Shown piece after piece: positions 6,001 to 9,000 of a DNA stretch of 15,745 nt (the stretch's first letter is position 1; each line of letters opens with the position of its first letter). Location of the stretch: IMG/VR virus record IMGVR_UViG_2534681835_000028, positions 1 to 15,745 of that record, one strand, 5' to 3'. A program made the position numbers. This stretch comes from a virus. Lineage: Duplodnaviria; Heunggongvirae; Uroviricota; Caudoviricetes.

Positions 6001-9000
6001 ATGGCCTGAAAGAATTCCCGGAGGCCCGCATCCAGTTATGCATCGTGCATATGGTGCGCAACAGCATGCGCTTCGTGTCATGGAAGGAATACAAAGCTGT
6101 CACTCGCGACCTGAAAGCGATTAGCCTCCCACAGAAGAGGCAGGCCAGCAGGCACTGGAAGCGTTTGCTGCGGCCTGGGACTGCCGCTATCCGCAGATAA
6201 GCCGGTGCTAGCTGTCAAACTGGACTAACTTGGCGACGTTTTTCGCTTATCCGGCAGATATCCGCAAAGTGATCTACACAACGAACGCCATCGAGTCGCT
6301 GAACAGTGTGATCCGGCATGCCATCAGGAAACGCAAGGTGTTCCCGACGGACGAGTCAGTAAAAAAAGTGGTGTGGCTGGCAATCCAGGCCGCGTCACAG
6401 AAATGGACAATGCCGTTAAGGGACTGGCGAATGGCAATGAGCCGCTTTATTATCGAGTTTGGTGACCGTCTTGACGGTCACTTTTAAGAAAAGGCATTTA
6501 CACAGAATCCTAAACAGGCTCACAGGCCTCTAATCATCCACATTGTAAAGATCCTTTGTTGTAAGTAAGATCTGGTACCCTAATAATATCAAAAGGATTA
6601 AAATCATCACTGCATCCTTCCACGAGGCATTTCATTGCTCGTAGATCACCATATAGCTCTGAAGAGTGATGCGGACATAGCAGATTATAAACTTTACATT
6701 TCGAATCTTCTTTGCCTTGTCTACTTTCCTCAATTTTTACTTTCAATGAATGCAGAAAAAAAGATCCCTGATATAACTATCCCTGTCCTCTATCGTCATT
6801 CCCGCCCTCAGCGCTCCGACAACCTCATCAGTATTTTCATTTCTCACCTCAAATACACTATTTCTCTTATCCATCAGCCCACTTACAAAAGCACTTAGCT
6901 CTTGAAAAATTTCCTCAAGCTCATTATTATTTCTGGCACATGAATATATAGAGACCATAACATCAAGTTTATCTTGTAATTCAGGAGAAAGAAAGTGATT
7001 ATGATTAAGCTCACTTACTGATTCCGGAGTCGAAGGGTTACCTCTTCCTGATACATACATCCATGAATAAAGATTTGCTGAAGAACCACTTGTTGGTAAC
7101 ATATCAAAACCCCCTTAACAAATAAATCCATAAATATTATTGCAACTAATATATCTGGATAAAAATATTATATCTTACTTAATACTACACTAATAAGATC
7201 CAGCTTTCCTCCGTGATAAGATTGCATGACTTGATGTTCACTCCATGAAATATCAGAAACATTATAAGATGATATATCTATTGGATTAAATTCATTTCTC
7301 ATACGATCATATAAAACATTTGTTTCTGTTGTATCAACAAAAAGAATTCCTTTTTTCTCCAGTCTGTCAAACATATCGTAAATAGCCTGTTCAGCTTGTG
7401 CTGGTAATGATGGAATATCCAAAAGAGATTCCCCATTTATTTTATTCATTCTAATACCAATAACATTTCCATTATCATTATATATTTTCTCTGCACTCCC
7501 GGAACTGACATATCAACGAAAGAGGTGGCAGCAATGCTAAACACCTACGTCGCAGAAGGTAAAGCGGTTTCCGCAAGAGTAATCAGGTCAACCCTTGTTG
7601 ACGTTTTTCGAGGGGCAATAGCCGAGGGGCATGTGGCAACGAATCCAGTAACAACAACCCGTGCAGCAAAGTCAGAAGTAAGGCGCTCAAGGCTGACAGC
7701 TAATGAGTATGTCGCTATTTACCATGCTGCTGAGCACCTCCCCATCTGGCTGAGGCTGTCAATGGATTTAGCTGTCGTTACAGGGCAGAGAGTGGGCGAT
7801 TTGTGCAGAATGAAGTGGTCAGACATAAACGATGGTCATCTTCACATTGGACAGAGTAAAACAGGAGCCAAAATTGCCATTCCGCTGGCTCTAACCATTG
7901 ACGCACTCGACTTCGGGTCTCTCTAGTGTAATTGGACACTGAATAGACTCTGGCGGGCACTGGAAATTTCCTGAACTAACAGGAAACTTACATTGAGATA
8001 TTTTGTCCTGAATACTCTCTTGCGATTGTGCTTCACCTGAGTCCGAAAGCATACTGAGCATCCTATCGCGAAGAGCTTCAGGGCCGTTATTAAACCCATA
8101 AAGGAATAACTCAGTAAGCAATCCCCCACTACTGCCGCTGGATAGAAAACGCCCATCGGTTTCATTAAATACAATGCTGACAGTCTCATTACCTAATGTA
8201 AACTCCCCTCGACCGCTAGATGCTACTTGAGCTCGAAGGACATTCAATCCATTAAAAATGAGCTTGATCTAATCTCCGAATTTAACGGCATTATAAAACT
8301 CCCTATTTTAATTTAAACTCCAGACTTAAATAGCTTTAACAAACATCTGCCTTACATGACAACAAAAACCGGAGCCGGACTCCGGTTTTGTGAAGCTGTC
8401 GGGTTACTTCATCCCGCCAATATTTTCCCACCTCCCGTCAGCACGCAGGATTTGCAGCGGTCTTACCACGCACTGTATCTGCTTTTTATCCGCATCCAGT
8501 ATCACCACCTGCGTGATTACCCTGTCCTGCTCCGGAATAATACCATTCTCATCGGACTCCAGGATGTCTGCCGGCCCCAGACGCAGTTGTGCTGTAAGTA
8601 ACCCCCCGTGTTCACGGTCATCATGCTTTCCGTGCCCGCACAGACGCTGCATAAGTTTTTTTAGTATGTTCATGTCATTCTCCTGTTCTGCCTGTATCAC
8701 TGCCCACTTCATCAAGCCCCTTAACATCCTGCCACGGCCCGTCACCAAACCTGACCTGCAAATGCTGAAAAAAACCCTGAACCCGTGTGGCATCTTTGGG
8801 GGCAAGAAAGGTCAGTCCGGTGATGAGTGCGCCATCTGTATCCGGGAACCAGCCATTGCTGTTTGTCTCAATAATGTTTCCCGGCCCCAGACGGAACCGT
8901 ATTTGTGTCTCCCCCGGGTCGCCCTTCGGTCCCTGAGGTCCGGTTGCCCCCACCGGGCCAGCCGCACCTGTTTCTCCTTTCGGTCCCTGTGGGCCTGCCG

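Follow-up and report, generated by a model that had tools for sequence, protein, structure and literature searches.

The 89-codon gene that directly follows the collagen-like tail-fibre gene in the analysed phage DNA (the window, 15,745 nucleotides in total) encodes a free-standing and strongly selected paralogue of the C-terminal PfC domain of that fibre. With a probability of roughly one half, we consider it to be a translationally coupled late gene whose product forms a PfC trimer of its own and assists the fibre in a dispensable, accessory role. The gene has been annotated before and was published as ORF68 (ECs1229) of Sp5 from E. coli O157:H7 Sakai (Mondal et al. 2016, PMC5155283); the present analysis adds data on its selection, the age of the duplication, the uniform layout in 80 of 80 related loci, the co-occurrence with the fibre domain and comparative tests of a frameshift and of a cassette mechanism. 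The two genes and their domains are arranged as follows:

8404–8673, minus strand: small ORF, 89 residues plus TAA stop, with the coordinates of RefSeq WP_001023476.1
8593–8673, minus strand: N-terminal 27 residues of the small protein (helix prediction and allele comparison)
8407–8592, minus strand: PfC (PF06820) domain of the small protein, residues 28–89 (Pfam match; pN/pS 0.052)
8675–9979, minus strand: collagen-like tail fibre of the EPclA type, 434 residues (ORF, Pfam and RefSeq)
8711–8902, minus strand: PfC domain of the fibre, residues 360–423 (Pfam), paralogue of the small-ORF domain

Translation of 8404–8673 yields the same 89-residue sequence as quoted in the preliminary description. 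Residues 28–89 match the Pfam family PF06820 (Phage_fiber_C, PfC) over model positions 1–64 of 64 (E=1e-36, 125.5 bits), and residues 360–423 of the fibre likewise cover the whole 64-position model (E=6e-36, 123 bits); both lie far above the threshold for membership, a gathering score of 25 bits over the full model. A direct BLASTP comparison aligned residues 29–88 of the small protein with residues 361–422 of the fibre at 21/62 identities (34%, E=3e-10), a similarity far beyond chance. The claim that the small ORF is a paralogue of the fibre C-terminus is thereby confirmed, and the known family to which it belongs is that of the fibre itself rather than an unrelated one. The Pfam search of the small ORF at E≤1 returned nothing besides PF06820, and NCBIfam gave no match. 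The small protein consists of a stand-alone PfC domain behind a 27-residue leader, with neither PfN nor collagen; its PF06820 membership holds at the domain level only and it does not form the C-terminus of a PfN/collagen tail fibre. Over its entire length it corresponds to phrog_576, a PHROG family of 89 positions (1–89/89, E=8e-59). The protein databases contain thousands of near-identical relatives under the PGAP name, in clusters with 91–98% identity, and the RefSeq name of the product reads “phage tail fiber C-terminal domain-containing protein”. A prophage of E. coli O111:H8 strain 8E is 100% identical to the window, and its RefSeq coding sequences are the same two genes, the fibre being termed “prophage tail fiber N-terminal domain-containing protein”.

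The N-terminal 27 residues, previously described as unrelated to the fibre and rich in His and Cys, indeed match nothing elsewhere in the fibre or the window and contain a Cys/His-rich linker. Within the window, neither a partial copy of the small ORF nor a collagen-like origin of its leader was found. The initial segment MNILKKLMQRL is conserved and predicted, at low confidence, to be helical. The following Cys/His-rich linker varies at codons 14, 22 and 24 and is missing from the Salmonella homologue. A conserved metal site was considered there and rejected, given the variation at positions 14 and 22 and the lack of the linker in Salmonella. The interpretation of MNILKKLMQRLCG as a lipoprotein signal or signal peptide was also discarded, as the segment has no hydrophobic core and the Leu at −1 misfits a lipobox, and a role in a defence system was dismissed for lack of a PADLOC match.

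The closest described relative, Sp5 ORF68, likewise has 89 residues, lies directly downstream of a PfC-ended collagen-like fibre and shares the same junction. Sp5 ORF68 and phrog_576 are 91–98% identical to the small ORF of the window, which joins this group by its end-to-end length of about 89 residues including the leader and by its position after a PfC-ended fibre. The two genes differ in their surroundings: the window gene is the last of its late operon and comes after a 434-residue EPclA fibre, within the lambda-like tail module (I, J, lom) of a long-tailed phage, whereas Sp5 ORF68 follows a 645-residue EPclB fibre inside a podophage tail module. According to Mondal et al. 2016 (PMC5155283), ORF68 is among the non-essential late genes while the fibre gene ORF67 is essential, and Sp5 lacking ORF68 still forms plaques and lysogens; primers for the individual deletion of ORF68 (ECs1229) are given in the supplement. 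In the Stx1 phage AU6Stx1 (GenBank KU977420), the same gene (97.8% identity) is annotated as “atfT, alternate tail fiber tip”; in contrast to our gene model, that record places the start at an ATG further upstream, which gives 129 residues, and predicts a +1 frameshift in a note. A literature search found no paper behind the atfT annotation. With the fibre-borne PfC of EPclA and EPclB (Ghosh et al. 2012) the small protein shares the PF06820 family, full model coverage and the RLGP and DG.W motifs. It differs from them in being free-standing without a collagen fusion, in its unrelated 27-residue N-terminus and in its slower evolution, and is only 34% identical to the PfC of its neighbour.

The signals around the two genes and the flanking genes to which we refer below are:

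8679–8684, minus strand: Shine-Dalgarno sequence AGGAGA, located in the final codons of the fibre with a 5-nt spacing to the small-ORF ATG
8355–8391, minus strand: intrinsic terminator, stem-loop 8362–8391 plus U-tract (RNA folding)
8290–8317, minus strand: promoter-like site TTTAAA-16-TATAAT, past the terminator (sequence scan)
10131–10730, minus strand: lom, gene of a Lom/Ail outer-membrane protein (Pfam and context)
10798–14271, minus strand: tail tip attachment protein J (context)

The stop codon TGA of the fibre (8675–8677) is separated from the ATG of the small ORF by a single base (8674), resulting in the junction ACAGGAGAA TGA C ATG (that is, ...ACA GGA GAA TGA C ATG). The preliminary description was therefore correct in assigning to the small ORF an AGGAGA ribosome-binding site of its own and a start 1 bp past the fibre stop. 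The 131-nt junction RNA folds worse than 193 of 200 shuffled sequences (z=+1.56), and the ribosome-binding site is therefore open. Third-position diversity drops to 0.015 in the last 13 fibre codons compared to 0.07–0.09 elsewhere; we attribute this near-invariance of the last 30–40 nt of the fibre gene to the Shine-Dalgarno sequence and start region located there. Starting 12 nt past the stop codon of the small ORF, a hairpin (8362–8391) followed by UUUUUGUUGU forms the strong terminator already described (−22 kcal/mol for a 66-nt stretch, z=−2.97), which closes the transcription unit of fibre and small ORF. A simple terminator scan did not call this element. No promoter-like site was seen upstream within the fibre/small-ORF unit, and the one past the terminator would serve the downstream NleG-family pseudogene, the first gene of the effector cargo region. 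Upstream of the fibre lie a lambda I-like gene, J and lom, the latter flanked by terminator-like hairpins at 9998–10027 and 10760–10779; a Tfa homologue is not present.

Conservation was assessed on 80 related loci from IMG/VR, which provided 53 intact distinct small-ORF alleles for pN/pS. In all 80 a PfC-coding ORF ends 4 nt before the small-ORF ATG, so the survey downstream of other collagen-like fibres returned the same layout throughout. The 28-nt junction is identical and start codon and Shine-Dalgarno sequence are intact in 79 of 81 copies, and the reading frame is uninterrupted in 53 of 54 distinct alleles; one individual copy (L025) carries a lesion. For the whole gene, pN/pS amounts to 0.117 (mean pS 0.121, mean pN 0.014), with a value of 0.052 for the PfC part and of 0.39 for the N-terminal 27 codons. 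The PfC domain of the small protein is thus more strongly constrained than that of the fibre, for which pN/pS is 0.26. Amino-acid variation is concentrated at codons 14 (H/C/Y/R), 22 (H/N/D), 24 (G/E/Q), 50 (D/A) and 81 (R/T/K/V). Alleles of the small ORF and of the fibre PfC show no signal of covariation (mean r2 0.043), in a setting of rampant recombination where linkage disequilibrium is low everywhere and this comparison carries little weight. The two PfC-coding segments share 52% nucleotide identity in a codon-based alignment, and the duplication is therefore old. An old duplication under purifying selection implies that the copy has been kept by selection and excludes a decaying remnant.

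The small ORF and the fibre PfC are inherited together. Among phage records searched with tblastn, 296 contain the small ORF and 296 the fibre PfC, with the same breakdown by organism. Of 5426 complete E. coli genomes, 698 carry the small ORF (6811 places, median 11 per genome) and 697 the fibre PfC (6159 places). Two loci of 933W-like short-tailed podophages encode a 631-residue EPclB fibre whose PfC is 100% identical to that of the window, followed across the same junction by the small ORF (98%) and then by further virion genes. The occurrence of the same PfC and small ORF behind EPclA as well as EPclB fibres indicates joint transfer of the Col-PfC end and the small gene between phages with long and with short tails. 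Beyond Escherichia, only decayed copies were found, in Salmonella and C. rodentium. In C. rodentium, an internally deleted fibre and a truncated small ORF of 78 residues adjoin NleG; in Salmonella enterica, a fibre-type PfC fragment overlaps a 50.6%-identical small-ORF homologue with an internal TAG, adjoined by NleG and SopA. The Salmonella homologue has retained an AAGGAGG and an ATG of its own, and the same frame contains a TAA two codons ahead of this ATG. The GTDB species representatives contributed E. albertii and a probable contaminant contig, and nothing else.

Two mechanisms advanced in the literature and in GenBank receive little support from these comparative data. According to the note in KU977420, a fraction of the ribosomes would shift by +1 near the 3′ end of the fibre gene, continue into the small ORF and produce a longer fibre with a second or replacement PfC. 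The small ORF does lie in the +1 frame of the fibre, which in 72 of 76 loci has no stop in the 46 codons preceding the ATG, the overlap contains a T7 run (GGTTTTTTTCAG) in the window, a weak UGA-C stop context preceded by an SD-like sequence superficially resembles prfB, and hardly any variation occurs over the final 30 nt of the fibre gene. However, this invariant stretch is accounted for by the Shine-Dalgarno and start region, and 26 of 76 loci have GGGCTGTTT in place of the T7 run GGTTTTTTTCAG, which is the one evident slippery run; a shift at this position would halve the PfC of the fibre. A stop interrupts the +1 frame 13 codons before the ATG in 4 of 76 loci and 2 codons before it (TAA) in Salmonella; the junction forms no stable stimulatory hairpin (z=+1.56, pseudoknots being outside the folding model), and by codon-anticodon rules the P-site GAA should not be able to re-pair in +1 on AAU. 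The combination of slippery site, stimulator and open +1 frame that defines frameshifts of the prfB or Listeria phage PSA type is absent here, and Mondal et al. searched for a frameshift signal joining ORF67 and ORF68 without finding one (PMC5155283). Judged from the sequence, a +1 frameshift appears quite unlikely. Mondal et al. 2016 instead proposed ORF68 as an “intragenomic reservoir” (PMC5155283), i.e. as spare sequence with which recombination swaps the C-terminal domain of the fibre, and the preliminary description had raised a similar exchangeable cassette. In the window, both genes share a direct repeat of 13 identical nt (20 nt at 90%), which lies in frame over the RLGP codons, and the protein P0058, a deletion fusion of collagen to a small-type PfC, indicates that such joints can form. 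But the two domains share only 52% nucleotide identity, and synonymous variants of the RLGP codons occur among small-ORF alleles (CGA or CGT, GGG or GGA), which means that DNA identity is not maintained. The small-ORF matches listed are all at most 131 residues long, the sole collagen-linked one being P0058, a fragment of 95 residues, and the database matches listed include no full-length fibre that ends in a small-type PfC. Moreover, the swap would be one-way because the original domain is deleted, and a silent cassette needs neither a conserved Shine-Dalgarno sequence, start codon and N-terminal helix nor a pN/pS of 0.05. The invertible segments Mu G and P1 C and the template repeat of the BPP-1 diversity-generating retroelement (DGR) also place a second fibre-distal coding copy beside the fibre gene; unlike the former, the small-ORF locus has no inverted repeats or invertase and its second copy has its own translation start, and unlike the latter it offers no near-identical template (52% nucleotide identity) and hence no VR/TR pair. 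No reverse-transcriptase-like ORF was noticed in the subset of window ORFs that was scanned. We regard an exchange function of the small ORF as improbable.

The notion of a non-functional leftover of duplication or domain replacement, also contained in the preliminary description, might draw on the many defective carrier prophages and on the lesioned copies (L025, Salmonella, C. rodentium), yet it is effectively refuted by a pN/pS of 0.05–0.12 at a pS of about 0.12 (0.117 for the gene, 0.052 for its PfC part), by a frame intact in 53 of 54 distinct alleles, by the conserved Shine-Dalgarno sequence and ATG, and by the 50–59% identity shared with the Salmonella lineage, although nucleotide identity to the paralogue is 52%. 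A non-structural fibre assembly chaperone, comparable in gene position to lambda Tfa and serving as a template on which PfC and collagen trimerise or come into register, appears doubtful. The small ORF occupies the slot of a tfa gene directly after an stf-like gene in a window devoid of a Tfa homologue, its product has the fold of the domain to be templated, and it is apparently translationally coupled to the fibre. On the other hand, the Sp5 fibre gene is essential and ORF68 is not (PMC5155283), and recombinant EPclA, Col-PfC and PfC, each produced on its own in laboratory E. coli, assemble into trimers (PMC3368898). An obligatory chaperone role, as the earlier proposal may be read, has thus to be abandoned, which leaves the small protein at most as a dispensable helper for the fibre. 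The genes lambda tfa, Mu U and P2 G are likewise small, located immediately 3′ of a side tail-fibre gene and co-expressed late, but they bear no sequence relationship to the small ORF, which matches no Tfa- or Caudo_TAP-type family; Tfa is not paralogous to a fibre domain, and fibre folding generally depends on it, in contrast to the dispensable ORF68. Some Tfa proteins remain bound to the fibre tip. Action outside the virion, either as a soluble receptor-binding decoy at lysis or as a lysogen conversion factor linked to the T3SS effector cargo, is in our opinion also rather improbable. It would be in line with a distribution that follows LEE-type pathogens, with remnant prophages of C. rodentium and Salmonella that keep the fibre 3′ end and the small ORF beside NleG or SopA genes, and with a microarray study in which ECs0845 and ECs2940 were about 5-fold induced in spinach root exudate. 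However, the array probes cross-hybridise among about 10 copies, and the remnant copies are themselves decayed by an internal stop or truncation, which argues for linked passengers rather than selected genes. The sequence displays no signal peptide or lipobox, no promoter-like site of its own and no PADLOC match, and in 933W-like phages the gene is embedded in the virion module with structural genes on both sides.

For the reading that we prefer, the dispensable fibre accessory, we propose the following scenario. The small ORF would be co-transcribed late with the collagen-like EPclA or EPclB fibre gene of EHEC-associated lambdoid and Stx phages, and initiated separately at its own Shine-Dalgarno sequence and ATG in translational coupling to the fibre. 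The product comprises a conserved N-terminal segment predicted as a helix, a variable linker and PfC, an ancient paralogue of the fibre trimerisation knob, and, by analogy with the isolated fibre PfC, might form a homotrimeric knob. This knob may serve as a non-essential accessory of the fibre which contacts the fibre or a receptor, either riding on or next to the distal end, and then presumably present in virions, or modulating fibre use. It would function neither as an obligatory chaperone nor as a recombination cassette or frameshift extension. Since deletion of ORF68 gave no marked phenotype in Sp5 on K-12, any role, be it as a dispensable helper, a tip or a decoy, is expected to be conditional. 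A more specific version, in which the free PfC trimer is a detachable distal element that sits on the PfC knob of the fibre or binds the same host receptor, is put forward only tentatively and has a rather small probability. Such an element could add a second specificity under certain conditions, or shield the progeny phages from debris and vesicles. Collagen-like fibres would then be two-component adhesins in which a paralogue of the fibre end provides the tip in trans, and the variable codons 14, 22, 24, 50 and 81 on an otherwise frozen protein would mark the interaction surface. A genome of EHEC/STEC-type E. coli contains about 10 copies of such a fibre with its small partner, among them copies on the Stx-converting phages which spread Shiga toxin, and the role of the partner would help to explain host range and spread of Stx-carrying phages. 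Otherwise, the result mainly tidies the record in that the gene is real, selected and no remnant, and reveals no new kind of system.

The trimeric state postulated for the small protein leans on its relatives in the fibres. The fibre of the window comprises PfN (PF08400) at residues 1–133, a coiled-coil-like low-complexity region, Gly-X-Y repeats at about 247–358 and PfC at 360–423; this layout parallels the PfN-PCoil-Col-PfC architecture of EPclA (Ghosh et al. 2012, PMC3368898). In the same study the isolated PfC was a trimer by SEC-MALLS and re-nucleated the collagen helix, which established the EPclA PfC as a trimerisation module. The PF06820 family is predicted to be all-beta. Structure prediction was useful for one of the two proteins: the AF2 model of the fibre PfC (17-sequence alignment) is all-beta with a mean pLDDT of 80, and of 84–93 over the first 60 residues, while the monomer model of the small protein (6-sequence alignment) reached a pLDDT of 50.6, too poor for a fold search. 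Neither a Foldseek search of the PfC model against the PDB nor sequence searches against the PDB yielded a meaningful match. In BFVD, the fibre PfC model best matches tail-fibre proteins from numerous phages (TMq about 0.6, probability 1.0, E 0.01–0.1); these scores are modest yet consistently point to a tail-fibre beta module. An exhaustive representative search of the sequences gave only 93 matches, and we dismissed the long multi-stretch ones to SprB and CarboxypepD_reg repeat proteins as noise caused by the repeats. An unrelated fibre-like protein from the exhaustive search (P0233) contains PfC-like units repeated in line beside collagen triplets, an arrangement that fits PfC as a trimer “node”.

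The region of the window 3′ of the terminator that closes the transcription unit of the collagen-like fibre and the small ORF (positions 1–8300) is an exchangeable effector locus, which contains the following elements:

1–327, IS3-type HTH ORF
800–1450, NleG-family gene
2957–3547, IpaB_EvcA-family gene
3730–4377, NleG-family gene
5853–6487, IS256-family transposase fragments
about 6534–7102, nleF
7168–7449, NleH1-2 fragment
7525–7926, integrase fragment
7891–8247, frameshifted NleG-family fragment

In some prophages that are otherwise near-identical, the 3′-terminal 23 codons of the small ORF together with the terminator are duplicated as a 139-bp segment of 93% identity, which is found 1.2–4 kb downstream (7436–7575 in locus L005 and 10271–10410 in L028 and L030) and brackets the first cargo segment. 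This second copy, which is absent from the window, may serve as a homology anchor for cargo exchange.

A diverged and decayed pair, consisting of a PfC fragment and the small ORF, is present in a prophage remnant of Salmonella enterica (L083–L085, 6001–6637), where it adjoins NleG-like and SopA effector genes. The small-ORF homologue is interrupted there by an internal TAG and is devoid of the Cys/His linker. A further homologue with 91% identity is encoded on a contig of 725 bp from an assembly designated ‘Xanthomonas pisi’ (NZ_JPLE01000138.1, L089), which is almost certainly an E. coli contamination.

Terminator-like hairpins were detected on either side of the neighbouring lom gene:

9998–10027, minus strand, terminator-like hairpin beside lom
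10760–10779, minus strand, terminator-like hairpin beside lom

The fibre gene and the small ORF are therefore located behind a terminator and presumably rely on antiterminated late transcription.

Among the alleles of the small ORF, codons 14–27 (window 8593–8634) are almost free of third-position variation (π = 0.005) and carry at least 11 non-synonymous changes, distributed over codons 14, 19, 22, 24 and 25. This pattern is the reverse of that in the remaining ORF; either diversifying selection or some hidden constraint may be responsible. Codons 35–41 (ADILESD) contain the junctions of four chimeric database proteins (P0058, P0067, P0085 and P0186), in which the small ORF is joined to collagen, J, Lom or the C-terminal half of the fibre PfC domain; these junctions may stem from genuine deletions that arose as prophages decayed, from errors of assembly or from a hotspot of breakpoints at this site. 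In locus L025 (5984–6270), a 1-nt deletion in the Shine-Dalgarno sequence (AGGAG to AGAG) places the fibre and the small ORF into one frame. A natural fusion of both was nevertheless rejected because of a premature stop at codon 8 of the small ORF, which identifies L025 as a decaying copy.

Two long antisense ORFs span the collagen-coding repeats:

8390–9289, plus strand, antisense ORF of 299 aa
8905–9756, plus strand, antisense ORF of 283 aa

Neither appears to be a gene; both seem to arise incidentally from the Gly-X-Y codon composition.

Units that distantly resemble the PfC domain were encountered in the search hits P0233 and P0258. A fibre-like protein of 565 aa contains four tandem PfC-like units (consensus …VVVLxADxx…GILRVRxADGTWxxIPAxKG), each followed by Gly-X-Y triplets, and a related unit, IQWRxGxGxWxNL, is repeated in a protein of 938 aa. 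PfC may be part of a broader class of in-line trimer nodes of collagen-containing fibres.
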